From Rhodothermales bacterium (lineage in GTDB: Bacteria; Bacteroidota; Rhodothermia; Rhodothermales; Bin80), in assembly GCA_965207565.1 (NCBI GenBank), contig CBDBMQ010000007.1, positions 28,804-92,803 on the forward strand: a DNA stretch of 64,000 bases. The letters run 5' to 3'. Position 1 is the stretch's first letter; every line of letters begins with the position of its first letter. Shown here one piece after another: positions 2,063-64,000 of the stretch. The notes below the pieces were generated by a model. It was not told the DNA's origin, did not search any database, and worked only from the letters and a program-made list of their open reading frames with translations. The translations under genes were made by a program, and so were the position numbers.

Positions 2063-2484
2063 GTTCAACCTCCTCCAAGTGGTATGCTATTCGCTGCGCA
2101 ACCTGATCCGTATCTGAGTCAATTTCGCATTCCCAAGCGATGAGGACCTGCCAGCCCCAGCTTTTTGAGTGCTTTCAAATTCCGTTCATCCCGCTCGAGT
2201 GTTTCGCGAAATTTTTCGAGCCAGAAGGATTCGTTGGATTTTGGAGTGGACGCATGCTTACAGCCATCGTGACGATGCCAGAAACAGCCGTGTACGAAGA
2301 TGGCTGTCCGGTATTTTGGTAGTACGACATCAGGCTTGCCTGGCAATTTCGTTTCATGAACGCGAAACCGAAAGCCCAACTGATGAAGGCATGAGCGAAG
2401 TTTTCGCTCGGGAATGGTATCGCGTCCTCTGATCCTAGACATATTCCAACTGCGTTGTTCTTTGGAGAGGTGATCTGCCATCAT
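2052..2484 (-). CDS. vsr: Very-short-patch repair endonuclease Vsr (1-bp frameshift near the 3' end, in the G4 run at ~2155)
   Basis: RSWNMSRIRGRDTIPE, LPGKPDVV and FVHGCFWHRH motifs. Removing one G restores the canonical tail LGWQVLIAWECEI, ending at TGA 2052. Confidence 0.93.
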
Positions 2485-4031
2485 GATTCCCCTCTAGCTG
2501 CATCCAGCGCATCAGCGACGACATCTCCAATCTGTCGGGCGAGGTATGGTGGCACGGCATTCCCGATCTGGCGATACTGCTCAGTTCGGGGGCCTTCGAA
2601 TTTGTAATTATCCGGGAATGTTTGCAGCCGCGCCGCTTCACGCACAGTTAGGCTCCTGCACTGTGCCAGGTCATAATGGATATAGAAGTGTCCATCTTTC
2701 GCCATGTGCGCCGTGATCGTGGAGGCAGACCGGTTTGGTAACTGCACTCGGAAACGGTCCACAAAATTTTTCCCTGCTTCTCCATTTACGACATCACGAT
2801 GAGCTGGAAGTAAAGCGGAAGGAAAGTCATGCAGTCTTGGGCTTCTCCCCATGACTTTAGCGAATGCCGCTGCGAACGCATAGCGCTGGAGATCAGAGGG
2901 CATATGTGCACGCGACTCGTGTCCTGTCAGTGTACGCACGCGTGGATCGTGCATGAATGCTATTGCTCCGCCTATGTCTGCTGATTTTGATGGGTAGGAG
3001 CAGTCCTTTCTTTGGAGTGAATCCGGTACAGACTTGAAGAGAGAAGTCACTTCATTACAGATACCTTCCGCGTGAATGTAGTTTTCAAAATTCACCTTAT
3101 CCAGAGAAGCAATTGCTTTTGTCCACGCCTCAAGAGTGTCTGGTTCCCCCGTGATTCCACTGCGAATTTTGGGTAATTGTCCGATCGTTTGCTCCACTGT
3201 TGGGGCTTTTCAGGCGTTAACTGTGGAGGCTCGATACCGAGATCACTGCGGATTCCCACGATGAATACCCGATGACGGGTTTGAGGTACGCCGTGCTGTT
3301 CAGACTTTACCAGAAAGTCGCTTGGCTGAGCTGAACCGAATAAAGCTTCTGGACAGTAAAGCCCGTGGAGCTCATATCTAGACGAACTGTTTTGCAAGGT
3401 CCCAAGGGCACGGCATGGGTTTCTGAGATCTTTCTGGATCATCTGGAATATGGGCTCTCCATCGTGCTTAGCGGAAAGCAATCCCTTTACATTCTCCATT
3501 ACGAAGATGGGTGGTCCGTGCTCGGCAATGACTCTTAGGTATTCTCTGTAAAGGAAGTGGCGCTCATCATGCTCAAATTCAGGCATGCCTTGCATACGTG
3601 ACCGTCCCGCCAATGAGTATGCTTGGCAGGGAGGCCCACCAACCAGCACCCACAGGGAAGTATTCGACAGGCGGTTAGCGATTATCTCGCAAACCTGAGC
3701 ATGATTTTCCGGGCCGAGTGTAAGGTGCAGGGCAGACTCCTCGGCATGATGCGAGGCGGTAGGATGAGAGGCAAAGAGTTCTGCAGACTCAATGGTGCCA
3801 TCCAGATAGCGATAATAAGCTTCAGGAGCTTCGCTAGGTGGGAAATGGCGAAAAAAATGCCTCAGCCGCAGCGTCTTATGCGCCCAAGCATCCTTTTCAA
3901 TCGATGCAGCTATAAAAAATCGGGGGGGGGGGCGAAATTTGATGTTTACTACCCGTGGCGGTAGCAAACCCTTCTCCTAGTCCTCCAGGCCCTGCAAATA
4001 GATCAACGACAGGGTACGGCGGTATTTTCAT
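2481..4031 (-). CDS. dcm: DNA (cytosine-5)-methyltransferase, split by two frameshifts (C11 tract at 3922-3932 and ~3205)
   Basis: Motif I DLFAGPGG, IV GGPPCQ, VI ENVKG, VIII QTRHR, IX RSLTVREAARLQTFP and X QIGNAVP, spread over three ORF pieces. Confidence 0.92.
3922..3932. repeat. G11 (coding-strand C11) homopolymer inside the methyltransferase 5' region
   Basis: Directly visible. C10 would be in frame (TCG CCC CCC CCC CGA); C11 is out of frame. Confidence 0.9.
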
Positions 4032-4109
4032 CACGATCAACACAGGAACAGGGACTGAATAGGATTTGAAGTATAATAAATTCCAGGTTCCTGGCAATCA
4101 TTTCGGGTG

Positions 4110-4633
4110 TATTCTTCGGTAGTGTTATGCTTCAGTGTAGGGGCAAGCAACCTATTGCAACGATTCATAGCCAGTAAATTCCCCAAAATCATCCGACGCC
4201 AGGAACAACGTATATGGTCTCCAATAATCCCAAAAATGCCTATCCTTGTCAGTCATTACAGTGATTGTGCAGATGATTACCAAGTTTTGATGGAAGAGGC
4301 ATACTTTTGGGGTTGATTGGCTAAAATGTACCAACAGAACATGGCTACTATTGGAAGCACAGAGAATCCCTGTAGGATTGCAATCATCGGAGCCGGTCCG
4401 GCAGGGTTCTATGCAGCAGGACACCTGCTGAAACAAAAAACTCACGTTGTGACGGTAGATGTATTTGACAAGCTTCCCGTCCCCTACGGGCTTGTTCGCA
4501 GCGGCGTTGCCCCTGATCATCAGAAAATAAAGAATGTGACGCGCGTGTATGAAAAAACTGCCGCACAGGAAGGATTTCGGTTTTTTGGCAATGTTGAGTA
4601 CGGCAGGGATATTGATCTTGAGGATTTAAGCAA
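4110..4633 (+). repeat. Direct repeat copy 1 (promoter plus 5' end of the ferredoxin-NADP reductase gene)
   Basis: 4185-4633 matches 10233-10681 with 4 substitutions; 4110-4184 is a diverged match to 10150-10232. Confidence 0.97.
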
Positions 4634-4838: not shown

Positions 4839-5856
4839 CTATTGACAGGGTTGTAACTCGTTCGTACCAACGCCTAATACATCTTCCTGCCATTCATTTC
4901 CCTCTGTATCAAACCGATATACGTCGCTTGTATAACCCGCAAAAATTCCAAGCCCGTTCAGTACATTGGTATACACAGCAAGACGGTTACTGGTTTGAAG
5001 AATGTTTGGGGTGTGCAAGAATATGTCATGCAACTCAAGTGATCGCTCGTATGCAAACGATTCATTACTGAGTGCCGTGAGCACAAGCATAAAATGAGGA
5101 CTGATTGATTGGAAGATCATCGGCTCAAATGTGATTTCGAATTCTTTCGTAGTAGCCTCAAAGAGTTGATCAGAAAAGAATGCAGGCCCAAAATCTTTTC
5201 TAAATCAGGGATGGTCGGATCATCGACCGCCTCTATGTAGACATGGAATGAGGGTGAGTTGCTATGAAAAAAGAGCCAATCATAGTCCAATGAATATCCA
5301 GGGCCATCTTCGATTCTTAAGCCTCCGGCGTCGTCTTTGCAGAATGGCATCACTTGGTAAAGATTGAGGCGATAATAATTCTTACCTGGCTGGTCTGCTA
5401 ATCTGAAGCGCAGTCTGTAACCGCTTTTCGGTAGCAGAATCTTCTCTTGATATGGGTTCCATTTCCAGAAGCTTGCTCTCCAGGGACGGTGCCTGAGAGG
5501 AAGCCATCGCCATTGGGAAGCCGTTTACATTCACTTGTACTTCGTAGGTCATACCATTTATCGGGCGATGATTATGGACCGTCTGATAGATTCCATGATC
5601 AATCTGCTGTAGCGTATCACGAAAATGATCTTCTCCGATGATGATAATGCTGGCATCCGATAGCATCAATTCACTTGGCTTTGCATTGTCTCTTAAAGGG
5701 ACACTCTTGCCCACTTGCAACCTCCATAAGCTATCGGGAGAAAAATGCGATGTTACTACAAGCCTGGATTGGTAACTCTCCAGGAATATCCAAGTCAACA
5801 ATCGTTTCGCATCCACACAACAGTGCGAGGAGAAGAATTCCAATCCACTCGCGCAT
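4839..5856 (-). CDS. DUF4249-like lipoprotein partner of the TonB receptor (3 apparent 1-bp indels)
   Basis: Rejoined frames read MREWIGILLLALLCGC|ETIVDLDIP-ESYQSRLVV...ADQPGKNYY...FFSDQLF...YTNVLNGLGIFAGY, with a lipobox and a typical C-terminal motif. Confidence 0.8.
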
Positions 5857-5859
5857 CAC

Positions 5860-8280
5860 TTAAAACCTCCATTGCCAAGAAATAGCGGGGATTAACTGCA
5901 AAAAGCTCAGCTGCCTGTAGGAAATAAGAGATCCGCCAGTCAGGTTTTTTTTCGGATAGACAAACATGGGGTTTTTTCGATTGTAGGCATTGTATAAACC
6001 CACACTAATCGTGCGTTCTCCCCAGGACCTTTGCTTCTTGAAGTTCACGCTGATGTCAAGACGGTGATAAGCTGGTGCCCGGGCTGAATTAACTGGACCA
6101 GTGTCTAACAAATTTTGAAAACCACTTATATAGCGACCTATAGGAACCCAGGACTGGGTAACCACTGCCATACACCCACACAGCTGATATTTGTCTCGTA
6201 TTTGAGAGTTGATACTGCATCACCACCGAAATATCATGACGACGATCATATCCATCAGGAAAGGGATGCCCCCCATTAAGAGACTCAAATCGTCTGGTAG
6301 TCCGTGCCCAAGTATAGCCTGCCCATCCTGTCAGGTATCCCCTTTTCTTTTGAACAAAGATTTCCGCTCCACGAGAGGTACCCGTGCCAATCTCCAGAAG
6401 ATCTGGCCAATCCAAGAATGCTGACCGATATCTGTCTGCTCCAGTCGTGTATTCAAGATGTCCCGTCATATGCTTGAGATAGCTCTCAACTGAAAACTGA
6501 TAGCGACCCTCTTGGAAACTTTTCAGAAACCCTACTGCTATCTGATATCCGCTTTGAGGGGTAATGCGATCCATGCTCGGGATCCATAAATCCGTAGGAA
6601 ATGCGGTGCCTCCACCCGTCAATAAATGTATATACTGCTTTGACCGTGCATAAGAAGCCCTTGATCGCACTCGTCTCCGAAACTCGCACATTGATACCTA
6701 ATCGTGGCTCAATGGAACGGAAACGTGTGTGCTGGGGCAGTATAACCCGAAAGTCGGAGTCCAGTAGTCACTCTTAGTGCATGATGCAGTTGCATCACAT
6801 CTTCAGCGTAGAGTGCCATTTCCTGGGAGGTAATTACCCCCGACGGTGTCTGCAGTAGGCTGACGGGCGGCCTCCCCGACTCTTCCAGACTCGTTTGGGT
6901 AGTTCCCGGGCTGAAGCGATGCAAAATGCCCTCTGCTCCAAAACGCACATAATGCCGGGGATTCGGAACATACTCAAAATCAATCTTTGCAGTCCAATCA
7001 ATAATTTCAGAATGCCACATCCCTTCGTATGTGATAACATTGTTGTCACTATCGTCTAATGAGTGCGTACTTGAAGAGAAACGATATTGCATAACGCCCA
7101 TAAGAGCATTGGCGAATAAACGGTCCCTAATGAGCCGGTTCCAACGAAGAGATACTAAACGATTGCGCCAACCCAAATCATAATTAAGTTGGTCATCCGA
7201 ACCCAGATCAGGGGGTGCTGACCGCTTTTCATAGGAGAATTTATCCTGACCGGCATAGGCACTCAGGTAGATACGATTTCGCTCCGATAAAATATAGTTT
7301 GTCTTAAAGTTTAAATCGTAAAACGCCGCACCATATCGGGTAAGTTTACGCTGAAAGGGACGCAATAGCTGGTCTATGTATGTACGCCGACCAGCTACCA
7401 AAAAAGAGGCGTGCTCCCTCGCGATTGGTCCTTCAAGCATAATGCGTGAAGAAACAAGCCCAATTGCCCCCTCCCCGGCGAAATGTTTCAAGTTTCCCTC
7501 TTTCATCGTGTAACTGACCACCGACGAAAGACGTCCACCGTATCGCGCTGGGAAACCGCCCTTGATCAGCTCAACACGCTTCATCGCTGCCGAGTTGAAC
7601 ACGCTGAAAAATCCAAACAGATGATTGGGATTATAAAGCGGAAGTCCGTCCAGCAAAATAAGGTTCTGATCCGCACGACCACCTCGCACATACAGTCCAC
7701 TGCTACCTTCTACGCCTGACTGAACACTAGGCAATAGTTGGAGCGTTTTCTGAATGTCAATTTCTCCGAGGATCACCGGTAGTGTTTCAATTTCTTCTAT
7801 TGTTATCTCGTGGCGGCTCATCTGCACATCATCTAGATCATTTTCCCTTTCGGCGATGACCTCCATATCTTTCATTCTCACGACACGAGATGCGAGTGTA
7901 ATGGTCAATGTGGTATCTCCATTGATCTCAAGACGATGCCAAGCCGGTTCATATCCGACATGTGAAACCCAGAGCAAAAGAGATCCTGGATCAGTGGTCA
8001 GGCTATAGAATCCATACTGATTTGTTGTAGTACCGATCTGGAGTGCCGGAATATACACGCTCGCCCCAAGAATTCGTTCTCGACTCGCTATGTCTTCCAA
8101 ATAACCGCTGATCGTCGCAGGTTGAGCGGCTATCAAGTCGAATTGAGTGCTCCACAGTAGTAACATCAGCAGTCCTCGGTTCAACCACCTAACTGTCACC
8201 ATACTGTAACTCCAACAACTTAATGTAGAAATAAATATAGGGTAGCACCCAAACCTGCCCGTTCGTATTCTTTTAGACAA
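5860..8280 (-). CDS. TonB-dependent receptor with N-terminal carboxypeptidase-regulatory-like domain (3 apparent 1-bp indels)
   Basis: TTTNQYGFYSL, LYVRGGRADQNLILLDG, GGFPARYGGRLSSV, YDRRHD, AYHRLD, LYNAYNRKN and a C-terminal WRF. The true start may be ~8202. Confidence 0.92.
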
Positions 8281-50224: not shown

Positions 50225-53200
50225 ATGAGATTTAAACAGCTATTAGGCTTAACAGTGCTTTTACTGCTCACCGTGCCCGTGGCATTTGCTCAACAGGGCA
50301 AGATTGACGGGGTAGTTACCGATGTTGCGACAGGGGAGACGATTCCTGGGGCAAGCGTTATCATTGAGGGCACCGCTCAAGGTGCAGCCACACAGGTGGA
50401 CGGTTACTACTTCATCAACAACGTTCGGCCTGGGACCTACACGCTGGTAGTTTCTTTTGTTGGGTTCGTAACCCAGCGGGTTGAAGGAGTCCGGGTTTCG
50501 ACCGGGTTGACTTCGACGAGAGATATTCAACTGAGCGAGGAAGCCGTTGGTCTGGATGAAATCGTGGTCATGAGTGAGCGCCCAATTGTTCAGTTGGATG
50601 TCTCGGCGAATGTGGCCAGTCTCAACTCGGAGGCTTTTGAAGATCTCCCCGTTGCCGGCGTTAGTGAAGTGCTTGACTTGCAGGCAGGGATTGAGCCGGG
50701 CCTTCGTGTACGGGGCGGAGGATTGAATGAAGTTGCCTTTGTGGTTAGATGGAATGAATCTACGGACGGGGCGCGCCCATCAGCCATTTACAAACATCAG
50801 CTATACTTCATTAGAGGAGGTACAGGTGCAGACCGGTGGATTCAATGCGGAATACGGGAATGTTCGCAGTGGTATCGTGAATGTCACAACCAAAGAGCCT
50901 TCCCGGACGCGCTACACCGTTGATGCACTTTACCGTTATCAACCTGCTCAAGCCAAGGCGCTTGAGGGATTGGGAGGAGTCTCACTGGATAACTGCAACT
51001 ACTCCGGCTCGGTAACAGGGGATTGCGACAGTTGGTTTATTCGTCCGTTCCTGGATCCAGCGGTTGCCATGGAGGGGACAGGTAACGGTGCATGGGATTC
51101 TTATACCCAGAACCAGTACAATGCTTTTGAGGGCTGGAATGCACTGGCTGAGCGGCTCGTGACTGGTGAGGGATTTGATGTCACGGCCCAGGATATGCAG
51201 GACTATTTCAAGCACACGCACCGCAAAGATAACGAGATCACCAAGCCTGATTATGAGGTGGATGTGACGGTTGCGGGGCCACTGGTTCCAGGCCTTAGTC
51301 GTAGGCTGGGTGATTTGCGTTTCTCTGCCTCATATCGGGGAACTCAGACCGCCTACATCTACCCGCAGACCCGGGATGCATTTACAAACCAGACATTCCA
51401 AGGTAAGATTATCTCGAATGTTAGACCTGGGATGAAGTTGAGTCTGCAGGGGATGAAAGGCATTGAGCGGGGGATAAACCGCTCGCAGGGGAGTGCAGAC
51501 CTCCGAATGTATGGTGGCCAAATGCCGGCGTATCCATGGTGGGGGGCAGGAGCAGATATCGTGGATGGCATCAATCGTCGAGGACGTGTTATCCTGTCTG
51601 ACGGTGCGTTCCCGCTCGCCAATGTAGACCACACGATGATCGGAGCAACCTTCACGCATACCCTGAGCGCGAGTACCTTTTATGAAGTGAATCTTCAGAA
51701 TATTGCTTCAAAATATCGTAGTCATTTCCCGAATCTTCGTGACGGCTCGTATATCGAGAATAGCGAGTTTTTCCCAGTTCCGTATACGAATAACTTCGGC
51801 CGGTTGACTCCGGCAGGGGAACAGAACAGGGATCAAGTCACCTGCTTTGGTGGGGCTAGCGACCTTAGTGGGGATGGGAAGGTCGTTCCCTACTGTGTGG
51901 GGGATGAGCCGTTTGGATTTTTGGGTCAGGGCGGAAACCTTTTGGGTGGAGCGGAGACCACCGGTGGTCACTGGGTCAAAACCCGGGACACCTCCGATGT
52001 GAGTGTCTTTTACGGGACGGTTTGATCTGACCAGTCAGGTAACACGCGTGCTTCAGCTTAAAACAGGTGCAGAACTCATTATCAGTGACTATGCCCTGAA
52101 CTATAAAAGAGTCAATCTGGCCTTGGTCGGACCGGAGCCTGAAGCGGATTATCCGTTCTCACGCCAACCGATCCAGGGTGCAGCCTATGCACAGGGTAAG
52201 CTTGAATTCCAGGGAATGATCGCCAATCTGGAGTTCGCGTTGACTTCTTTGATGCGAATACGGCTTGGTGGGTAGCAGAGAACCCCTATGATCAGGCGTT
52301 CCGGCAACGGGCGGAAGAGTTGGACGAACTTCTGCCGAAGGAGGATCCAGATGCCCAGATATTCATCAGTCCCCCGGCTCGGGATTTCTTTCCCGATCAC
52401 CTCGGAAAGCAAGCTCTACTTCAATTATGGTCATTTCCGCCAGATGCTGAATCCGTTTGATGTATTTGGCGTTCAGCAATCGCGTAACGGAGGGATTGAT
52501 GTTCTGGGGAACCCGGATCACCCAATGGCCTCAGACCGTGGCGTACGAGTTGGGGTTTGACCAAAACCTGTTTGACCAGTACCTGCTACGGATTAGTGGG
52601 TTTTACAGAGACATCCGGAATCAGCCCCGGAATGTCAGCTACAATAGTCTCGGTGGTGTTGTGAATTATACGATCAAGCAGCCATGGAATTACGAGGATG
52701 TACGCGGCGCGGAGGTCACGCTCACTAAACTGCGTGGGGACTGGATCCGTGGGTTCGTGAACTACACCTTCCTCCAGACGAAGAGTGGTAATTTTGGCTA
52801 CAGCCGCTTTCAACGAGAACACGTTCCAGCAGCGTAACTATCTGAGGACATCTACCGATTATCGCCTTTCGGCACCACTTGCCGAGCCGTTTGCCCGCGC
52901 AAACCTACTCTTCTTAACGCCAAGCAGCCTCGTCCCATCGGTGTTCAATGGTGCGTTGCTGGGGGATTGGAGGGTCAGCCTTCTGGGTGAGTGGCGTGCA
53001 GGCAGCCAGTGGACTTGGGCCGGTGGTGGTGGAACACCGCCAGAACTCCAGCAGAATGTGCGCTGGCGCAGCTACTTGAATTTTGACCTTCGTTTCACGA
53101 AGCACATCAATACGCGTTACGGCGGTGCACAGGTCTTCCTGGATGTTTCGAACTTGTTCAATCGTCGCCATCTCTATAGTGCGACCGGCTTCCATCCAGA

Positions 53201-53612
53201 TGGTCGGGACTTTGACCGGTATATGTGGTCACTGCACCTGCCGGAAGATATCTTTGATCAGTTGAATGCGGTAGATGAGACGTTGCCGTATGCAGAAAAA
53301 CAGGGACTCCCGTATATCTGGGTCCCGGGTGATGATCGTCCTGGAGTATTTCGTCATCCAGACGTAGCGTATCAGCCGATTGAAGCATCCAAATCGCTGG
53401 ATGGTGTCTCCAACCCGAATACTACCGCGTGGTATTGGGCAGCGGATACAGGGACCTACTCCCGCTGGAATGGATCCAGTTTTGAAGAAGTACCTAGTAA
53501 TGAGGTCAACCAGGTGCTTGATGATAAAGCGTACATTGATATGCCGAACCTCCGGTTCAATACGTTTCTCAATAATCGGCGGATCACGTTGGGGATTCGC
53601 GTAACCTTATAG
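50225..53612 (+). CDS. Large TonB-dependent receptor (6 apparent 1-bp indels)
   Basis: Signal peptide, ETIPGASVIIEGT, VRGG..EVAFVVDG, TGGFNAEYGN..SGIVNVTTK, SPRLGISFPI and a terminal strand ITLGIRVTL; SD GGAGG. Confidence 0.93.
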
Positions 53613-53686: not shown

Positions 53687-56030
53687 ATGAAAATCAGATA
53701 CCATTTCAAGGCGTTAACCATCGGCACGTTTTTGCTGATGCTTACGCCAACCGTTGCCATGTCGCAGTTCACCGCTCAGTGGCTGGACATTGGCACATTT
53801 CACAGTACGTACACCGAGTCGGGAGCGCAGCACGAAGGCAACTCCTCTGCTTCGGATGGCATGGAGTGGCCTGCCATCCTGCGGAACAGCAGTCACTATC
53901 GTGCCAGAGCACTTTGGGCTTGGCACAAAGAACTGGACCGCCTGCAGACGGGCAAAACTTTCCGTATTTCGTGGCCCGTATTGGCCCGCGTACTGCCGGT
54001 GCGGACGTGACGTATCCAGGTACAGAACCGTTTGATCCAGCAGGACGGAAGACACGGTTATAGAAGTCGATGGAGCACTGTCCTTTGACAACGTGGCGAT
54101 CGTCGACGAGATTAACCCATCCCTTCCAGCTGACCGGATGGTTCACAACATCCACAATACCTATATCGGTGTTACGGTGGATCGAAAAGCGTACGCCTAC
54201 GTGAATCAGGTGCACGATGATTCGAATGTGATAGAGTACACCTACACCAATACTGGCAATACCGACGAAGATGAAGATATTGAGTTGCCGGATCAGAGCC
54301 TGAGTGAAACCTACTTCTTCCGCATCCACCGGCTCAGAGGGAATTTGCAGGGAGCCTGGGCGGTCAGTGGTGGTCAGGTCTGGGGGAAGTTCAGCATGAT
54401 TGATGTTGTAGGAGACGGGCATGCAGATTATCCCCTCTCGTTTACATCCCAGTATCTCTGGATTGGAATTGACCCTGAAACCCAGGACTATGATCGTTTT
54501 GGTGGATCGCTGTTCAACCAACGAAATGATTGGCCTCAGGGAGATACGATCGGGCGTTTGGCAGCAGCTAGCTATATAGGTCGTGCTACGATCCATGCCG
54601 ATAATTCTCCGACGGACCCCACGTACATCCGCTGTACAACCGCCACGATTGATACCTGTCAGCCATCCACCATGGGATTCATGGACCAGGATGAGGCACT
54701 GACAGCGGACGGTAGTCCGCAGGAAGATTATTACGAGTGGGGCATCCGGACACGGGAAAATCCCGACCGGATTGAGGGTGGCTCTGCCCATATGTTTCCT
54801 CATTATGCGGATCGGATTGAGCCCGACGGGATTTTCTGGGAGCCCGAGAATGACTCCTCTACCGGGAAACAGGGTGGACACGCAATCACCACGGCCTACG
54901 GCCCCTATGATTTTGCGCCGGGAGAGAGTGTCAGGATTGTTGTGGTCGAAGGGGTTGGCGGGTTGTCCATTGATGCAGCGGTGCGGATTGGGAGAGCCTT
55001 CAAACTCGGCGGACAGGATCGGAATACACAGTTGATCCGATACGATGCGAATGGGGATGGAATGATTCAAACAGGCACTTTCGACTTTAGCATCAATCAA
55101 ATGGATGTGGATGGTGACGGCATGTTTGACACGTTTGGTCATGGTCTGGAGGAAATGACCAAGAATCAATGGGTTGTGACTGCGAGAGATTCATTACTGA
55201 CTGTTCAGCAGCGAGCGATCAACCTCTATGCGGCCAGTAACAATATGACAACCTATCCGATTCCAGAGGCGCCTCATTCTCCTACGAGCTTCACGGTCGT
55301 AGGTCGGCCAGACAAGGTTGAAATCGATTGGACTAACCCGGCCGGTGGTCCCAACCGTACGTCATGGAAACTGTACCGAACCTCTCGGTTTGAGGATTAC
55401 ATTTACCAGAACTGCATGAATCTTGATACCAGGCAGTTTACCGATGGCTCAAATGCGAAAGATCCGGCAGATCCTTCTGCAACACAGCAGGCGCATTGCG
55501 ACTATGATCTTATTGCGGATCTTGGTCCAGGGGCAACGTCGTACGAAGATACCGACCTGAACCGGGGAACAGATTATTACTACTACCTGCAAGCGATTGG
55601 TGAGCCGCAGTCCGTTGACCCCGATGGAATTAACGGAACCCCGACTGGCGCTCCGCTTCGCAGTTCTCGCTATCTCACACAGACGTACCTACCAGTGAAC
55701 CTCAAGCGTCCTCCTTACGGAGCAACAGGGACGGTGGCAGATGCGCGTATTGTGCCGAACCCGGTGAACCTTGGTTCAGATCCGACCATACGGTTTGATC
55801 AGGAAGATCGGGTGGCGTTCTTCAACATTCCCGGGAATTGCACGATCAAGGTCTATACCGAAATCGGTGAACTAGTCCATACGATTGAGCACAACGATGG
55901 AAGTGGTGATGAACTTTGGAACCTGACGACTACGTCTCGACAGCTACTGGTCAGTGGCATTTATATCGCGGTCATTACGGACAACGATACGGGAGATGAG
56001 GCAATTCAGAAATTCACGGTAATCCGGTAG
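53687..56030 (+). CDS. Secreted protein with FN3-like domain and T9SS/FlgD-like C-terminal domain (4 apparent 1-bp insertions at 53915-54040)
   Basis: Signal peptide; rejoined frame ..ALWLGTKNWTAADGQNFPY..YPVQNRLISRTEDTVIEVDG..; SYEDTDLNRGTDYYYY; C-terminal IVPNP..FFNIPGNCTIKVYT.IGELV..WNL..VSGIY..KFTVIR. Confidence 0.85.
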
Positions 56031-56038
56031 ATGTGGTT

Positions 56039-56070
56039 TGCGCCGCGCTTTGATGGTAAAGCGCGGCGCA
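56039..56070 (+). other. Intergenic stem-loop between the cargo and PorV-like genes
   Basis: TGCGCCGCGCTTT-gatggt-AAAGCGCGGCGCA, a 13-bp perfect stem with no U-tract. Confidence 0.8.
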
Positions 56071-56098
56071 GCCCATCACCCAAAGAAAACACAATGAA

Positions 56099-57166
56099 AT
56101 GAAAAAATATACTCTCCTTTCAACATTGACCATCTTGGCACTTGTGTTCGCTGGTGTGTCAATGTCTTATGGCCAGGCAGGCCTAACGCCGGATACGGAG
56201 GTGGAAACAGATAAGCGTGCCCAGGCTGGCATGAAGTTTCTCAGCACATCCGTGGATGCGCGGGCTTCTGCGATTGGTTCTGCCATGACGGCGGAACTGT
56301 CCGGTTCTTCGGTGTCCATGTTCTATAATCCTGCGAGTATGGGCTTTATGCCCGGACGCATGTCCGCAGCAGCGACGAATATGTCGTTCATTGCAGATAT
56401 TGGATACACGCAGGCCAGCGTTGCTTTCCGTCCAGGTTCAGCTGGCAATTATGGTGTCGTCGGCGTCTCGCTCGTGTCCGTTGACTACGGTGCCTTCCAT
56501 CACACGATTCGTGCGAACAACGATGATGGATTTATCGAAAACGGCACGTACAGCCCGACGTCGATGGCAGTCGGGCTCGGATATGCCCGCTCCTTCGGTG
56601 ACCGCTTCTCGGCCGGTGCGAATATCAAGCTTGTCTTCCAGGATATTGGCTCCGGGTTTTCAACCTCACAGGATTTTGATACGGGAGTCATTGCTACGAC
56701 AGAAGATTACAATACCCGGACGATCGCATACGACTTTGGTATTGTGTACGCAACCGGGTTTGAGAGCTTGGTGATCGGCATGAGTGCCCGCAACTTCGGG
56801 CAAGAGCAGATCTATGTACGCGAACGGTTTGAGTTACCCTTAACCTTCCAGATTGGAATGTCCATGAACCTGGTGGATCTTACTGCGATTGATCCGGATA
56901 TGCACAGCATTCAACTGCATGTGGATGCGCAGCGTCCACGTGACTTTGCGGAGCATGTTCGCTTTGGTCTAGAATACACCTTCATGGATATGGTATCGTT
57001 ACGTGGAGGATTTGAGCAGTTGGGTGTCAGTGAAGAGCAAGGGTTCAGCGCCGGTGCAGGACTTCGGTATGCATTTGGAGGATTCAACGTTGGAGCGGAT
57101 TATGCCTACACCGACTTCGGTCTGTTTGGTGCAGTCAATCGGATTGGACTTCAGATTGGTCTATAG
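56099..57166 (+). CDS. PorV/PorQ-like (UPF0164) outer-membrane beta-barrel
   Basis: KFLSTSVDARASAIG, MFYNPAS, LPLTFQIG, GLEY..VSLRGG and DYAYTDFG. Confidence 0.88.
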   Translation: MKKYTLLSTLTILALVFAGVSMSYGQAGLTPDTEVETDKRAQAGMKFLSTSVDARASAIGSAMTAELSGSSVSMFYNPASMGFMPGRMSAAATNMSFIADIGYTQASVAFRPGSAGNYGVVGVSLVSVDYGAFHHTIRANNDDGFIENGTYSPTSMAVGLGYARSFGDRFSAGANIKLVFQDIGSGFSTSQDFDTGVIATTEDYNTRTIAYDFGIVYATGFESLVIGMSARNFGQEQIYVRERFELPLTFQIGMSMNLVDLTAIDPDMHSIQLHVDAQRPRDFAEHVRFGLEYTFMDMVSLRGGFEQLGVSEEQGFSAGAGLRYAFGGFNVGADYAYTDFGLFGAVNRIGLQIGL

Positions 57167-57247
57167 AGCTTCGGCGTGACCAATCTTGGGTATTTTGAGT
57201 GGAAGGTCGTCAATCAACGAAACTCAATTTATGCTACGCTGAGTAGC

Positions 57248-58560
57248 ATGAGGACGGGGATCTTGTTTGTCACCTTGTTTTCTGTCGTATTTGGAGGCTG
57301 CGACAGCGGGGTTGACATGGAGGATCTTGCTATTTCAGACTCCGGCGCAATTAAGGCTGCTCAGCGGTTTTACGAGAATTTTCATGAACGGGACACCCAG
57401 TCACCTGGCGACAGTATCAGGGGCTTTGTGTTGGCTGATTTGTGTTGGCTGAAATGATCCGCCAATACCCGGCCGATTGGGCACAGGTCGTTGCATGGCC
57501 CGATGGTCGGGGAGGTATGTATGTATCAACCCTGATTGGTGCCGACAAGCCTGCGATCAGTTTTTCGCACGACGATATATCCGTTGTACGTACGCTGATG
57601 GTTGACATTAACTCAGAGGGCATGGCGACCGCGTCACGACTACTGGAGTTCATTAGTTCTGATCCACTTGATCAGTCCCAATTTCAGTACTATACGAAGC
57701 AATGGCTTGTAGGCGATTATGATACGACTGCAATGATGACCTCGGAATATAGTCTTGGTTTCGAGTCTGAGAAGGCACAATTCTTTTTGCCATCTGACAG
57801 CGCGCTGTTTCCGGTTGATATATCCCTGAAAGAAATTACTAGGCAGGGCAAGACGGAAGATGAGACGTATTGGTGTTACGTAAGCGATTATACGAGAGGG
57901 GGGGATGTGTGTTTTGAGTATCAGGGAGAATCCGGTTGCGGGCATACTCCTGGCGAAATAGAGATTACCTGCATCTGTACTTCTGGTTGCGGCGAAGAAC
58001 AAGATGGCGGTGGTGGCGGAGGAGGTACAGGAGGAAGAGGTATAGGAGACCCGCCTACCGGTAGGGGTGGAGGTGGGGAGAATGGAGATAATGAAGAGGA
58101 AGATAAATGCAACTGCGTCAGCCAGAAGGTTTGTGATCTTATCACAGAATACGAGGACGTGGGAGTTAACTTTACACCTAGTTGTTCTGACTTCCGAGGC
58201 GGGGGATCAACCGCAAATTTTTCATGGAACGAATTTATGGGAGGTTGGAGTAATGGTAATGAAGGCGGGAAACATAGCCCCTACGGTATCATGGATCAGG
58301 GCGTCATGAATCGTGTTCAGGAAATCCGCATTTTGTACGGGGGCCCAATCACATTGACTTCAGGCTACCGATGTCCAAAGGGGAATCAAGCTGTGGGTGG
58401 AGTGCCACAAAGTCGGCATATGCGAGGGACTGCAGTTGATATTCATACCGGATGCGATAAAGCTTATCACGATGACTTGGCAAGATATGCGGACGGTATG
58501 GGATTTTCCCCAACCGAATGGGGGACTTATCCAGATTGCCATCTACATATCCAGAGGTAA
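57248..58560 (+). CDS. Lipoprotein with Cys/Gly-rich linker and C-terminal peptidase M15 (zinc D-Ala-D-Ala peptidase-like) domain; frame broken by a 14-bp duplication
   Basis: Lipobox FGG-C; TSGYRC..N..VGG..SRHMRGTAVDI..HLH motif; removing one repeat copy fuses the two ORFs. Confidence 0.85.
57425..57452 (+). repeat. Perfect 14-bp tandem duplication TTTGTGTTGGCTGA x2
   Basis: Directly visible; accounts exactly for the frame change between ORFs 57176 and 57442. Confidence 0.95.
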
Positions 58561-58578
58561 TAGACCTATACACACGCT

Positions 58579-59385
58579 ATGTCTGCAAAATTCATCTTGC
58601 CACTTTTTCTCAGCCTGTTTTCAGTATGCACAGTACATGCACAAAAGCCCATGGGCGCCACGCCAGACGGAGTCATCCGGCAGCTCACCAGCTCAGATTA
58701 CAGAACGGTGCTTGATGGTCTGGCCGATTACATGAGTCTCCCGAAGAATCAGCGCACTCCAGCCGTGAAAGCTGCACTTGTGCAGGCACTCAAAAATGAA
58801 AACGAGCGTATTCGATCAATTATACTGACAAGAGGAGATGCAATGCCTGTATACGAAGATCATGGATCTGCTGAAGGGGCATTGCTTCTGGTAGGGGAGG
58901 TGTATGAACTGCAAGATCCTACTACAATCCCGGCACTTTTACCTTGGCGCGGATGGTCTGATGAAATGATTGATTTTGGACGACAGGCATTTGAACCTGT
59001 TTTGGGGTTTATCGAAGAATCGCCGCCAGGTACTACACGACACGCAATCGCCGGTCGCCTTTATACTCTCCGTATGATGGTTGATTACTGGGGTTTGGAC
59101 ACGTTCAGTGCATCCGAGCACCAACGTATGAAACAGGTTGCCGCAAAATATATCGTGAACTCTGAGTTCTCCACAATGAGTGATGCTATCTCGCTAGCCG
59201 CGTCTCTTCAGGAAAGAGCACTGCTTCAAATGGCAAACGTCTTAGTAAATGATGATGCGGAGATGGCAAAACGGGAGGTCGGTAACAGAGATAGGTTACA
59301 AGAAATTGCATCACAAGCGTTGGCAGGTACGCTAGAGGAGCGGCAGTATGTGCCATATGAGGAGCGGCGAAAGAGAGGATACTGA
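58579..59385 (+). CDS. Exported alpha-helical hypothetical protein, candidate immunity protein
   Basis: Signal peptide ending VHA-Q, helical HEAT-like pattern, 18 bp after the peptidase gene. Confidence 0.65.
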   Translation: MSAKFILPLFLSLFSVCTVHAQKPMGATPDGVIRQLTSSDYRTVLDGLADYMSLPKNQRTPAVKAALVQALKNENERIRSIILTRGDAMPVYEDHGSAEGALLLVGEVYELQDPTTIPALLPWRGWSDEMIDFGRQAFEPVLGFIEESPPGTTRHAIAGRLYTLRMMVDYWGLDTFSASEHQRMKQVAAKYIVNSEFSTMSDAISLAASLQERALLQMANVLVNDDAEMAKREVGNRDRLQEIASQALAGTLEERQYVPYEERRKRGY

Positions 59386-59466
59386 GTTTACATTTCTCCC
59401 AGGCTTTCACTCAATTATTCAAATTGTGAAACCTACATCTTCAGTGAGGCTTTACAGTTCGTCGCA

Positions 59467-61242
59467 TTGACCTTTCCAATAAAAAAGGTGAAGAGCCTCT
59501 TTATCAGCCTAAGGTATTGGGTTGATTTGGCTGTGGTTTGCAGGATAGGAGTCCTCGTTGTAGTCTCGTTTGGGATATTTGGCTGCCAGATATCGGAGGA
59601 TCCGGTGCCCGAACAGGGATTCATCCAATTCACCGAGGTGACCGATGAGGTGGGCCTCGGCACGTTTCGGCATGATAATGGGGAGGATGGCAAAAAGTAT
59701 TATGCGGAGCAGATGGGCTCGGGAGCAGGCTTTATTGACTATGATGGAGATGGTTGGCTGGATATACTTCTTGCGGGGGGTGGCTACTGGGATCGGGCTC
59801 CACATCCGTGGTACAAGCCCCTATGGATGTACCGTAATATGGGGGATGGCACATTCATGGAGGTGACCGACCACGTGGGATTGAAAGATCTTGATGCGTT
59901 TACCCTTGGAGTGGCGACAGCGGATTATGACAATGATGGGGATCAGGATATTCTGATCACCAATCTGAATGAAAATATGCTCCTGGAAAATAAAGGGGGA
60001 GTATTTGAGCGCAGGGGAGTCGACGTAGGACTCAGTTCAGAGGACGAATGGAGCAGTTCTGCCCTGTGGATTGATGGGAATCGGGATGGATGGCTGGATG
60101 TGTATGTGGGGAATTATGCGGACTGGACCCCGGAAACCGATAAATTTTGTCCAGAAGGAGGAGTTGAGAAGCTCTATTGTATTCCTGCGGACTATGAGGG
60201 ACAGGCCAGTCGTTATTATGAAGCCCGGGGGGATGGCTCATTCGTGGACCGGACCCAGGAAGTCGACGTGTATCATTCACTTGGAAAAGCACTTGGAATG
60301 GCAGAATGGGATTTTAATCAGGATGGCTGGCCGGATTTCGTGGTCGCGAATGATGGAGAGGGAGATCTGCTGTTTCTAAATAATAGAGATGGTACGTTTT
60401 CTGAGCGCGGTGTCCAGAGTGGCATTGCATTCAGCGAGCATGGGGAAGCCCGTGCCGGAATGGGCATTGATATTGGTGTGGTGGATCAGACTGGCCACCC
60501 CTCGGTTTTTGTGGGTAACTTTTCCACAGAAATGATTGGTGTCTACCGGTATCTGGGCAATGGTCTATTTGCAGATCGTGCTGCAAGATCCCAGATTGGT
60601 CAACCCAGCCTCAACACACTCACCTTCGGGCTCATGCTCGTGGATGTAGATCTGGATACAGATTTGGATCTGTTTGTTGCCAATGGACACGTTTACCCCG
60701 ACCGGCTGATTGGACAGGATAAAATCACCTATGAGCAGCGAGCACAGCTGTTTGAGAATGATGGAGCGGGCTTGTTTGAGGAAGTTCCCGCTTCAACGAC
60801 TCCCCCGCTTGTACTGGAGATGGTTGCCCGTGGCGCAGCCTATGGGGATTATGACCGGGATGGGGACTTGGATTTTCTCATTGTGGAGAACCATGGTCCA
60901 GCACATCTGTGGCGCAGCGATGTGAGGGGTCGAAATTGGCTACGGGTGAGTGTCACGGGTACCAATGGAAACCGTGACGCCTTCGGGACACATATCCGGG
61001 TACATGCTGGCGATCAGGTTCAAGAGCGCCGGATTCGATCAGGGGGCAGTTACCTGTCTCAGAATGAAATCGTTGCCGCATTTGGAATGCTGGACATTGA
61101 AGTTGTAGACAGTATGCTGGTCAGTTGGCCTGATGGGCAGACGCAGGTCCTGTATGATCTTCCCGTGAATATTGAGGCCCATATTACTCAGGGACAGGAG
61201 GGCTGGAGCACTCGCCCAATGCCTGGCAAGCCAACTAATTGA
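59467..61242 (+). CDS. CRTAC1-family (FG-GAP repeats + ASPIC/UnbV) lipoprotein 1
   Basis: Repeated DYDxDGxxD motifs, GGSYLSQ and lipobox IFG-C; the real start is probably further downstream. Confidence 0.93.
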   Translation: MTFPIKKVKSLFISLRYWVDLAVVCRIGVLVVVSFGIFGCQISEDPVPEQGFIQFTEVTDEVGLGTFRHDNGEDGKKYYAEQMGSGAGFIDYDGDGWLDILLAGGGYWDRAPHPWYKPLWMYRNMGDGTFMEVTDHVGLKDLDAFTLGVATADYDNDGDQDILITNLNENMLLENKGGVFERRGVDVGLSSEDEWSSSALWIDGNRDGWLDVYVGNYADWTPETDKFCPEGGVEKLYCIPADYEGQASRYYEARGDGSFVDRTQEVDVYHSLGKALGMAEWDFNQDGWPDFVVANDGEGDLLFLNNRDGTFSERGVQSGIAFSEHGEARAGMGIDIGVVDQTGHPSVFVGNFSTEMIGVYRYLGNGLFADRAARSQIGQPSLNTLTFGLMLVDVDLDTDLDLFVANGHVYPDRLIGQDKITYEQRAQLFENDGAGLFEEVPASTTPPLVLEMVARGAAYGDYDRDGDLDFLIVENHGPAHLWRSDVRGRNWLRVSVTGTNGNRDAFGTHIRVHAGDQVQERRIRSGGSYLSQNEIVAAFGMLDIEVVDSMLVSWPDGQTQVLYDLPVNIEAHITQGQEGWSTRPMPGKPTN

Positions 61243-62909
61243 TGCGGAGTGTGATTATAGCATGTGTGGGGATCACCCTGATTGCGGGATGTGCCGGGGA
61301 CGCCCCCCAGGATCCAGACGCAGTGAACACGCTGTTTGCGGATGTGACCGAGGAGATTGGATTCGGAGGGGTTGTGCATAATCACGGCGGGTTCGGGAAT
61401 TCCTGGGCACCGGAAATTGTCGGTGCAGGAGGGGCATTCTTTGACTACGACCAGGATGGCTGGCAGGATATTATTGTGGCGACAGGGGGGGCATTTGAAG
61501 GAGAGCCTCCACTTGGAGCACATCCGGCTCTGCGACTGTTTCGCAATCTTGGTAATGGACAATTCGATGAGGTGACCCAACCAGCCGGCCTAGCCTTGCT
61601 TCGCGCTTACAGCCTGGGAATGACCATCGGGGATTATGACAACGACGGGGATCAGGATATTTATGTGACCACACTGGAAGAAGATCTGCTACTGCGTAAC
61701 ACGGATGGCGTTTTTGAGGAAATTGGACAGGCGGCGAAGGTAGGCTTGGTCAGTGAGTGGAGTACGAGTGCAATGTTCTTTGATGCAAACCGTGATGGAT
61801 TCCTGGATCTCTATGTTGGAACGTATGTTCACTGGACGCCCGAAGATGATATTTACTGCAGTTTCGGTGACAGTAAGGTATACTGTACGCCTGAGTTGTA
61901 TGATGGGATTGCCAGTCGGTACTACCAGAATAATGGAGATGGCACCTTTACAGATCTTACGGAGCAGGTGGGATTCCTGTCGGGAGTCGATGCGGGTCGG
62001 GACAAAACGTTAGGGGTTGCGGAACTGGATGCAAATCAGGATGGGTGGCCCGATGTGTTCGTTGCAAATGATACAGAGCGGGACATGCTGTTTATGAATC
62101 AAGGCGACGGGACGTTCGTGGAAACGGGCAGACGCAGTGGGGTCGCGTATGATCAGCATGGGAAGCCGAGGGCCGGCATGGGTGTGGATATTGGTGTGGT
62201 GGATGACTCGGGGGAGCCATCTATCTTTGTCGGAAACTTTTCGGATGAGATGGTAGGGGTCTATCAGCATAGAGGCAATGGCATGTTCAATGACCGTGCA
62301 GCTGCATCCAGGATGGGGCAGCCCAGCCTGAAGACACTCACCTTTGGTCTGGTACTCTTTGATGTTGATCTGGACACAGATCTGGACGTATTGATTGCCA
62401 ATGGTCATGTACAGACACACATTGCTCAGATTGTGGACGGAGTCGCCTTTCGGCAGCGTCCGCAATTATTTTTGAATACTGGAGCAGGCACGTTTACAGA
62501 GATGTCGGCAAGCGGGCCACTGGCAGCGTCTTTTGTCGGTCGGGGTCTGGCCACGGGGGACTATGATCGTGATGGTGACCTGGATGTTCTTCTGGTCGAA
62601 AACAATGGCCCCGCACATGTGTGGCGGAATGAGTCCGAGGGAGAGACCTGGCTCCGGGTTGAACTCACAGGTACCAGGAGCAATCGCAATGCGTATGGTG
62701 CACAACTCCACCTGTGGAGTCGTGGACACATGCAGGTGCGGCGTATTCGTACGGGTTCCAGCTATTTGTCCCATTCGGAGTCAGCCGCCTTTTTTGGGCT
62801 TCAGGGGATGCCAGACAGTCTCTATGTCCGTTGGCCAAGTGGACTGGAAACCTGGGTTCATGAATTACCGATCAATACCACGATACACCTTTTAGAAGAT
62901 GAATTGTAA
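61239..62909 (+). CDS. CRTAC1-family lipoprotein 2
   Basis: Same architecture; lipobox IAG-C and GSSYLSH. Confidence 0.93.
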   Translation: MMRSVIIACVGITLIAGCAGDAPQDPDAVNTLFADVTEEIGFGGVVHNHGGFGNSWAPEIVGAGGAFFDYDQDGWQDIIVATGGAFEGEPPLGAHPALRLFRNLGNGQFDEVTQPAGLALLRAYSLGMTIGDYDNDGDQDIYVTTLEEDLLLRNTDGVFEEIGQAAKVGLVSEWSTSAMFFDANRDGFLDLYVGTYVHWTPEDDIYCSFGDSKVYCTPELYDGIASRYYQNNGDGTFTDLTEQVGFLSGVDAGRDKTLGVAELDANQDGWPDVFVANDTERDMLFMNQGDGTFVETGRRSGVAYDQHGKPRAGMGVDIGVVDDSGEPSIFVGNFSDEMVGVYQHRGNGMFNDRAAASRMGQPSLKTLTFGLVLFDVDLDTDLDVLIANGHVQTHIAQIVDGVAFRQRPQLFLNTGAGTFTEMSASGPLAASFVGRGLATGDYDRDGDLDVLLVENNGPAHVWRNESEGETWLRVELTGTRSNRNAYGAQLHLWSRGHMQVRRIRTGSSYLSHSESAAFFGLQGMPDSLYVRWPSGLETWVHELPINTTIHLLEDEL

Positions 62910-64000
62910 GGGACTTATCCGAATTGAGGGCATGATCTTGCTTTTCGTTTTCGGAGCATGCAGTCAATCCGCCCCTGACCCGCAGGTATCAGAAGAGATT
63001 CAGCAGGCCCCTCAGATCGTATTTACAGACATGACCGCGTCTGCCGGTCTGGGAGATTTCCTGCACGAAACCGGAGCCTTTGGAGAAAAATGGTTTCCAG
63101 AGACAATGGGGGCAGGAGGAGGATTTCTGGATTATGATGGAGATGGAATCCTGGATATTTTGCTGATCTCCGGTAGTGTGTTTCCATCGCAGGGAGCGAT
63201 TGCACAACCCTCAATTCGTCTGTATCGCGGTAGCGAGAACGGGCAATTCGCAGAAGTGACCCAAGGGGCCGGTCTACAATCTCTTCAGAGCTATGCATTT
63301 GGTGTGAGTGTTGCAGATTACGATAATGACGGCGATCCCGATGTGTTTGTGACGGCGTTGTATGAAAACCTTCTGCTTCGTAATGAAGGAGGAGTCTTTC
63401 GCGAAGTCAGTCAGGAAGCAGGACTGGGGGGATATAGCGAGTGGAGCAGTGCCAGTGTGTTTCTGGATGCGGATCGGGATGGGTTTTTGGATTTATACAT
63501 CGGGAATTATGTTCACTGGACTCCTGAAGAGGATATTTACTGCACACGGGTAGGGGATAAGAAATCCTATTGCACCCCGGAGCAGTATGAGGGAATTACG
63601 GGACGGTTTTACCGGAATCGGGGGGACGGCACATTTGAAGAGAGGTCAGATGATTTTGCCGGTTTGCCTGGCAAAACGCTTGCGGCTGCGGGTATGGACT
63701 ACAACCGGGATGGATGGCCGGATTTGATTGTTGCGAATGATACCCAGCGGGACCTTCTTTTTGAAAACCAAGGGGATGGAATTTTTATTGAGAAGGGCGT
63801 GGTCAGTGGGATTGCGTTCGATGAAAATGGGCGTGCACGCGCCGGAATGGGGATCGATGTTGGTGTGGTGGACCATACCGGTGGAGAGACGGTATTCATA
63901 GGACATTTCTCAGGTGAAATGGTGGGTGTCTATCGACATATGGGCAACGGAATCTTTACCGAACGGGCAGCGGTTTCCCAGATCGGACGGCCCAGCCTGC
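62899..64000 (+). CDS. CRTAC1-family lipoprotein 3 (partial, runs off the window edge)
   Basis: Manual translation MNCKG..LLFVFGAC..FTDMTASAGL..WFPETMGAGGGFLDYDGDG; paralogous to the two upstream genes. Confidence 0.9.
   Translation, partial: MNCKGLIRIEGMILLFVFGACSQSAPDPQVSEEIQQAPQIVFTDMTASAGLGDFLHETGAFGEKWFPETMGAGGGFLDYDGDGILDILLISGSVFPSQGAIAQPSIRLYRGSENGQFAEVTQGAGLQSLQSYAFGVSVADYDNDGDPDVFVTALYENLLLRNEGGVFREVSQEAGLGGYSEWSSASVFLDADRDGFLDLYIGNYVHWTPEEDIYCTRVGDKKSYCTPEQYEGITGRFYRNRGDGTFEERSDDFAGLPGKTLAAAGMDYNRDGWPDLIVANDTQRDLLFENQGDGIFIEKGVVSGIAFDENGRARAGMGIDVGVVDHTGGETVFIGHFSGEMVGVYRHMGNGIFTERAAVSQIGRPSL

Follow-up and report, generated by a model that had tools for sequence, protein, structure and literature searches.

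A frameshifted lipoprotein gene with an M15 peptidase tip and its intact neighbour in a Rhodothermales bacterium: a probable member of a polymorphic toxin–immunity family

The window analysed here is a 64,000-nucleotide stretch from a Rhodothermales bacterium (GenBank assembly GCA_965207565.1, contig CBDBMQ010000007.1, positions 28,804 to 92,803 of the forward strand), and all positions below are counted from its first letter. At 57248-59385 it carries, on the plus strand, a broken lipoprotein gene and an intact partner gene, which probably belong to a family of polymorphic toxins and their immunity proteins. In the open reading frame (ORF) table and its translations, the ORF from 57248 begins with a hydrophobic run that leads to Cys-Asp-Ser-Gly. 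This 5′ piece of the toxin gene (57248-57457) encodes a lipoprotein signal peptide, the lipobox Cys with Asp next to it and ~40 residues of the mature N-terminus, and then runs out of frame to a stop after 69 codons. The remainder lies in another frame (57442-58560), which holds the N-domain, a candidate carrier or “escort” domain (alignment A1, AF2 model) that includes a Cys-rich segment with four conserved Cys (57442-58005), then a linker rich in Gly, Asp and Glu, at which homology to relatives with other tips ends (58006-58092), and finally the tip, in which a Cys cluster precedes a zinc peptidase domain of the M15 (LAS) type (58093-58560). The partner ORF starts 18 bp past the peptidase stop (58579-59385; ORF table and alignment A3) and encodes a helical protein of 268 residues with a signal peptide, the candidate periplasmic immunity protein. 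A preliminary description, made from the letters alone, had listed the lipobox, N-domain, Cys-rich segment, Gly linker, second Cys cluster, M15 domain with zinc ligands and signal-peptide partner, and all of these are in the sequence; it had taken the toxin elements for one gene, however, having read across the break between the two frames.

The toxin is split into two frames because of a perfect 14-bp tandem duplication on the plus strand (57425-57452; TRF period 14, 2.0 copies, 100% match), which leaves the lipobox and the first ~59 residues out of frame with the rest. With one 14-bp copy fewer, the frames would be continuous and the junction would agree with that of intact relatives; the N-terminal stretch of the window toxin was homologous to the intact relatives in loci L057, L077, L074 and L078 (tblastn). 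We also compared Logan contigs of four public runs with positions 56900-59500. Two runs of a single sample, which is probably the source of the window (X5 and X6, depth 4.4 and 2.3), showed zero differences from it and kept the duplication. In two runs from two other studies, ~95% identical to the window (X1, depth 11.5, and X7, depth 27.1), exactly 14 bases were absent at 57425. The gene is therefore undisrupted at this point in close relatives, and the window's population, sampled at low depth, has acquired the duplication as a derived lesion. The remaining X7 indels were all in the linker, with a net sum of zero, and X1, the indels of which were listed in part, additionally lacked 4 bases at 57515. 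The window toxin copy is a pseudogene inactivated by the 14-bp duplication, beside an intact immunity gene.

It seems unlikely that the duplication is anything other than a fixed inactivating mutation, such as an artefact of assembly or low coverage or a slipped-strand switch able to revert, with the toxin functional in at least part of the population. In favour of this are the shallowness of the probable source runs and their origin in one sample, the form of the lesion as a perfect tandem repeat, a type able to arise and revert by slippage, its absence from relatives in two other studies, and the 4-nucleotide indel of X1, which lies in another short repeat, of tetranucleotides. However, the two runs of the probable source sample were assembled separately and both match the window, and the breaks in relatives are of many unrelated kinds (nonsense codons, several frameshifts, deletions), which points to decay rather than to a switch.

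The N-domain, of ~190 residues, was modelled confidently by AF2 as a beta-rich fold (pLDDT 89.1, pTM 0.83). The supposition that it is an unrecognised domain held: it has no Pfam or NCBIfam family, the NCBIfam search adding nothing past its cut-offs, Foldseek returned no match of the model to the PDB at E<=1e-3, and the best fold match among 48,161 chains reached Z 4.7, leaving no clear structural relative. Surface lipoprotein barrels and LolA/MucB-like folds appeared as candidate relatives in rows too weak to use, the best Atlas hit (0.78) was under the useful range, and a word-indexed protein search gave only 5 close relatives, none with a name. Used as a query, the 372-residue frame gave matches in 30 of 61 related genomes (27 of the 36 of the same family), at up to 8 places per genome, a patchy and multi-copy distribution, and many of these matches spanned only residues 2 to ~225, within open frames of 400-640 residues. 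A profile of the N-domain (A1) retrieved 92 of 1.84e9 representative proteins at E<=1e-3. In a phylum-wide sample it was found in 7 of 401 genomes, every one in the window's own order, suggesting that, as far as sampled, the family is confined to one order.

The same N-domain carries unrelated C-terminal ends. The loci that we fetched share one architecture of lipobox, N-domain, Cys-rich segment, Gly/acidic linker and tip, and the tip is either M15 or an unrelated domain of ~300 residues, here called tip B. The N-domain nearest to that of the window, a copy in genome G005 (locus L023; 79% identity over residues 2-188, BLASTP), bears tip B, and the similarity ends at the linker. An 18-row N-domain tree requires 4 switches of tip type, no fewer than would be expected if the labels were shuffled (mean 5.2). 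Tips were clustered for those 50 of the 92 representatives that had at least 90 residues past the N-domain; 20 were M15 and 18 tip B, 3 were of a further HExxH type, 3 belonged to DUF6973 (a pair and a singleton), and 6 were other singletons, half of which (3/6) had a D..ExK pattern in common. A search with the N-domain alone, proposed in the preliminary description as the check, has accordingly found homologues with different C-terminal domains and, as described below, different downstream genes, and not the same peptidase throughout.

The window tip matches Pfam Peptidase_M15_3 (PF08291) at residues 259-356 of the 372-residue frame, well above the cut-off (62.2 bits versus 23.2, E 6e-17). 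The tip profile (A2) matches PDB entry 1lbu, the zinc D-Ala-D-Ala carboxypeptidase of Streptomyces albus, at E 2e-9, its nearest solved relative by sequence. The zinc ligands of the H-x6-D motif, H109 and D116, are invariant in A2, and the C-terminal H-x-H, which holds the zinc-ligand His, occurs in the window sequence and in all of the 7 A2 rows but one (L012). There is also a weak NCBIfam match to MepK (E 3.4e-4, 20.5 bits versus a cut-off of 185). Tip B was modelled confidently (pLDDT 89.9) as an Ig-like domain and, after it, a domain in which an HExxH motif is invariant (alignment A5); its fold matches ran only through the Ig-like first ~90 residues (best Z 6.5).

The linker between the N-domain and the tip is encoded by short tandem repeats, with a 15-bp unit at 58018-58048, and shows in-frame indels between strains; other contigs of the source run share only the linker stretch with the window. 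The linker is likely to be a hotspot for slippage, recombination and mis-assembly. Two further observations concern the tip genes. In genome G025 (L048), two copies of a 415-residue frame matching Pfam DruA (E 1.6e-19) lie at 3202-4449 and 5343-6590, 3′ of a toxin and its partner-B gene (of the family found downstream of tip B, described below), and each is ~30% similar to the middle segment of tip B. In contig G014:C138 (L057, 3025-4180), the open frame of an intact M15 toxin extends upstream without a stop into sequence that by eye resembles a phospholipase-D-type nuclease and a helicase; a gene of defence type, cut short, may here adjoin the toxin.

The gene downstream changes with the tip. 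Homologues of the window partner were found in 17 of the 61 genomes, and of the 29 matches outside the own genome, the coordinates of which were read by hand, 20 lay within 500 bp downstream of a same-strand M15 match; the other 9 were fragments, stood at contig ends, were 1-3 kb off or had no M15 match nearby. None of the fetched tip-B loci yielded a homologue of this partner. Instead, 18 of 22 tip-B loci had a same-strand ORF close by on the 3′ side, between a few and a few hundred bases away, and 16 of these 18 ORFs formed one signal-peptide family of 220-270 residues (partner B, alignment A4), often present in two or three tandem copies. This family is unrelated to that of the window partner (partner A; hhalign probability 1.2%). 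Partner A was seen only beside M15 and partner B beside tip B. Neither family is in Pfam. An Atlas search with the window partner gave HEAT-repeat-like clusters at 0.90-0.92, which we regard as a lead only. In one tip-B locus (L023 of G005), a 645-residue ORF on the opposite strand (2454-4391) stands between the toxin and two downstream partner-B copies and looks like an insertion that parted the toxin from its immunity genes. The signal peptides of both partner families end in Ala-Gln. Gln at the signal-peptidase I site is a habit of Bacteroidota, with which these ends agree.

Co-folding of the tip (A2) with the mature partner (A3), another check named in the preliminary description, gave a median ipSAE of 0.38 (runs 0.63, 0.38 and 0.31) against 0.16 for the best control, with partner pLDDT of at least 86 and agreement between runs in at least 85% of contacts. 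In the calibration of this method, 116 of 157 solved complexes attained the mark, as did 2 of 215 mismatches; only 18 of the 157 solved complexes, but both of the passing mismatches, did so with scores of 0.60 or below. The prediction lends weak support to binding between the tip and the partner.

In the family at large, toxin genes are often broken while the partner genes remain. Among 18 loci with N-domain and M15 tip, single open frames with a lipobox were found in 5 (G014:C138, G022:C185, G030, G021 and G056), and 13 were interrupted by frameshifts, stops or loss of the signal (G000, G001, G002, G003, G010, G020, G024, two in G026, G027, two in G028, and G033). In 12 of 13 near-full-length partner matches there was no stop. 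The common state of the family, as read from these sequences, is that immunity is kept and the toxin decays. Cassettes without a complete toxin were also seen. Contig G014:C25 (L058) has two successive units of a broken M15 fragment and an intact partner, and in G014:C3 an intact partner comes immediately after an N-terminal stub; in G003 (L060), a toxin with a frameshift and its partner are joined by an end-fragment of M15 with a further partner, G020 (L059) combines a tip in two pieces with one whole and one partial partner, and L069 and L075 likewise contain stand-alone tip/immunity cassettes. The window's own genome contains, on other contigs, the end of an orphan tip B with a partner-B gene after it (G000:C28:22749-23807) and a lipobox and N-domain stub followed by a partner-B end fragment (G000:C5:10230-11013, L002).

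At the site in the window, the pair is an insertion or deletion of 2.3 kb. The unit, 57193-59511, contains toxin and partner and is flanked upstream by a PorV-like gene (56099-57166) and downstream by the first of a run of CRTAC1-like genes (59467-61242). When 56001-60000 was compared by blastn with a congener (L063 of G005), window positions 56007-57192 and 59512-60000 aligned to 1-1188 and 1257-1745, which are 68 bp apart; in a second congener (L065 of G008) the PorV-like and CRTAC1-like orthologues are likewise ~70 bp apart. Positions 57193-59511 have no counterpart at this site in either of these two same-genus genomes, in agreement with the earlier remark that the pair interrupts the PorV-CRTAC1 run. 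G003 (L060) has a toxin/partner cluster at the same site, and the PorV adjacency is not kept at other copies of the family. Upstream of 14 other toxin loci, no gene recurred apart from an IS-type transposase frame in 3 of them and the shared genes of one pair of syntenic loci. A promoter and terminator scan of the locus found nothing exceeding shuffles.

Some features of the wider neighbourhood were also recorded. Directly 5′ of the PorV-like gene, 54093-56030 encodes a 645-residue protein with a weak, sub-threshold match (18.5 bits versus a cut-off of 27, E 0.0023) to CHU_C, a C-terminal domain of type IX secretion. The CRTAC1-like run consists of three tandem paralogous lipoproteins (59467-61242, 61239-62909 and 62899-64000) with FG-GAP_3 repeats and UnbV_ASPIC, ~50% identical to each other, and the run is kept in congeners. 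Further upstream, at 50225-53612, a large gene resembling an outer-membrane receptor (TonB-dependent or SusC-like by eye) is broken over at least 5 frames amid intact adjoining genes, and may be another pseudogene or a locally poor assembly.

Because of the tip swapping, the co-varying downstream gene, the orphan cassettes, the asymmetric decay of toxin and immunity genes, the indel at a syntenic site and the hallmarks of a life outside the cytoplasm (lipobox, conserved Cys pairs, signal peptides on both partner families), we consider that the locus is probably a member of a polymorphic toxin–immunity family of lipoproteins. The full-length toxin would be a lipoprotein in which the lipobox Cys is always followed by Asp. 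Its N-domain, ending in the disulfide-type Cys-rich segment, may serve trafficking or entry, and the poly-Gly/acidic linker would join it to an exchangeable C-terminal toxic tip. The M15 tip of the window would be expected to cut peptidoglycan peptides in the periplasm of the target cell, and the downstream signal-peptide helical protein would be its cognate periplasmic immunity factor, presumably acting by binding the tip. From sequence comparison we infer toxicity, neutralisation by binding and the part of the N-domain in trafficking or entry. The idea of a polymorphic toxin and its immunity protein, already raised in the preliminary description, thus gains from the swapping of tips and downstream genes across the family, and loses in that the toxin gene of the window itself is not intact.

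The lipobox and the conserved Cys pairs in the N-domain and the tip, which suggest disulfides, are the reasons why the protein is predicted to be lipidated and to leave the cytoplasm. In all 50 representatives with at least 45 residues before the PDW motif, Cys was followed by Asp (the lipobox was clear in 46, and the signal of the other 4 was truncated), while Asp followed Cys in only 11 of 100 lipoproteins predicted by regular expression in the own genome. If both partner families are periplasmic, the tips need only pass the outer membrane of the target, and transfer by vesicle fusion or membrane contact would suit tips that act in the periplasm. Two other origins were considered and rejected: type IX secretion cargo, as no family of C-terminal sorting domains (CTD) was found in the toxin and its C-terminus is the peptidase core itself, and a phage endolysin, as there is a lipobox and there are no phage genes nearby.

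Several points weigh against the toxin–immunity interpretation. The window copy is frameshifted and the own genome, which is 87% complete, has no intact member of the family but only remnants, so that the toxin system may be inactive in the host organism. Many of the relatives are metagenome-assembled genomes, and some of the breaks could be assembly errors; several genomes with broken toxins, however, consist of a single contig, and the lesions vary widely in kind. Genomic context was seen for only two tip families, the others being drawn from protein sequences alone, and the upstream regions of the 14 toxin loci examined had no accessory or transport gene in common. At the score obtained, a co-fold is, on the method's calibration, wrong more often than right unless the pairing was already likely. 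In E. coli, Asp at position +2 leads to retention in the inner membrane, which would be ill-suited to an exported weapon. The members of the family start with Cys-Asp-Ser/Thr and have further acidic residues only from about +6, and so do not have the surface-export motif of Bacteroides, CS(D/E)2 or K-(D/E)2; this motif may not hold for the present order, and the single SusD-like protein of the own genome starts Cys-Thr-Asp. The export signal of Bacteroidota lipoproteins has been described as acidic residues at +3/+4 past the lipobox Cys, of the form CS(D/E)2 or K-(D/E)2 (PMC6222051).

These proteins might instead be hydrolases on the surface or on vesicles that serve feeding or the lysis of unrelated prey, with the downstream protein as a self-protecting inhibitor or chaperone, a reading that we judge improbable. 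The tips for which there is genomic context are indeed hydrolase-like (the M15 peptidase and the invariant-HExxH domain), the neighbourhood has secretion-related and surface proteins (the PorV-like gene, the weak CHU_C match and the CRTAC1-like lipoproteins), and the lack of a dedicated delivery gene upstream of the 14 loci would agree with it. However, tip swapping, tip-specific downstream genes, orphan arrays and rapid toxin decay are hallmarks of conflict between relatives, as described for polymorphic toxins (PMC3482391), and are atypical of digestive enzymes, and the pair is absent at the same site in congeners. Still less probable is a housekeeping lipoprotein that remodels peptidoglycan together with a periplasmic regulator. 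In its favour, cell-wall maintenance enzymes occur among M15-type peptidases, there is the weak MepK match, and Asp after the lipobox Cys could by the E. coli rule keep the protein in the envelope of the producer. Against it, 31 of the 61 related genomes gave no match to the gene and others have several copies, 13 of 18 loci are pseudogenised, the conserved site has an indel, and the same N-domain bears unrelated tips.

The toxin–immunity interpretation can be placed among known systems. Polymorphic toxin systems were defined by Zhang in 2012, and HExxH peptidase tips are described as common in them (PMC3482391). The present family shows the comparative features of such systems: one N-domain occurs with M15, with tip B (Ig and HExxH), with DUF6973, with a second HExxH-type group and with a D..ExK group, there is a tip-matched downstream gene, and there are stand-alone tip/immunity cassettes. 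A full-text search found no publication on DUF6973/PF22322, and none of the listed matches for the taxon combined with toxin terms contained “polymorphic toxin”.

The nearest analogue would be SitA, a group of myxobacterial lipoprotein toxins in which an escort domain specific to each family stands at the N-terminus and a polymorphic nuclease at the C-terminus; an immunity gene lies downstream, and delivery is by outer membrane exchange (PMC5562445, PMC8546572), a route of the TraA/TraB type. As far as these accounts describe SitA, both systems have a lipoprotein with a lipobox, a family-defining N-terminal domain, polymorphic C-terminal toxin domains, an immunity gene immediately downstream and several copies per genome. 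They differ in phylum and in that the tips of SitA are described as nucleases with cytoplasmic immunity, whereas for two tip types here the partners have signal peptides and are presumably periplasmic. In addition, the present N-domain belongs to no family detectable by Pfam or NCBIfam, its distinction from SitA being one of description, and no sitB-like accessory gene was seen upstream in the 14 loci. APD1/APD2 of Amoebophilus asiaticus, lipobox-preceded prodomains with polymorphic C-termini and a predicted eukaryotic-host target (PMC3482391), are similar in having a signal peptide and lipobox, a conserved N-terminal domain and highly polymorphic C-termini in a lineage related to Bacteroidota. 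Compared by description only, they differ in being predicted to act against a eukaryotic host, and the account of them drawn on here mentions no immunity genes.

With respect to the tip, the window protein resembles other M15/LAS enzymes in exceeding the curated cut-off and in keeping the H-x6-D and His zinc ligands, and differs from them in what precedes it in the same protein, namely a Cys cluster and the carrier domain of a lipoprotein. Peptidoglycan-targeting toxins with an exported immunity protein encoded adjacently are familiar from the effector/periplasmic immunity pairs of type VI secretion and from colicin M. The present pair is alike in combining a wall-targeting enzymatic toxin with an adjoining gene for an exported immunity protein, but its toxin is a lipoprotein, in which Pfam detects no PAAR, VgrG, Rhs or colicin-type receptor or translocation domain. 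Taken together, the family appears to follow the same logic as polymorphic toxins and SitA and to be previously undescribed.

In 2017, SitA was stated by its authors to be the first polymorphic toxin that is itself a lipoprotein (PMC5562445). We tentatively propose, with rather more doubt than attaches to the toxin–immunity interpretation itself, that polymorphic toxins borne by lipoproteins have in this family a second lineage, independent of the one in myxobacteria. The Cys-Asp anchor and the new beta-rich N-domain would form a self-contained module, which takes exchangeable tips (periplasm-acting peptidases and possibly nuclease-like ones) out of the producer and across the outer membrane of a neighbour by vesicles or membrane contact, without the known trafficking domains of secretion systems. 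The family presents a clear pattern of toxin decay with retention of immunity, and it would define at least four protein families that have no current annotation, namely the N-domain, tip B and the two immunity families. If the proposal is true, lipid-anchored toxin delivery has evolved more than once, from unrelated parts and in a different phylum, and the invariant Cys-Asp anchor with its compact, confidently folded N-domain would offer a handle on how a lipoprotein crosses between cells.

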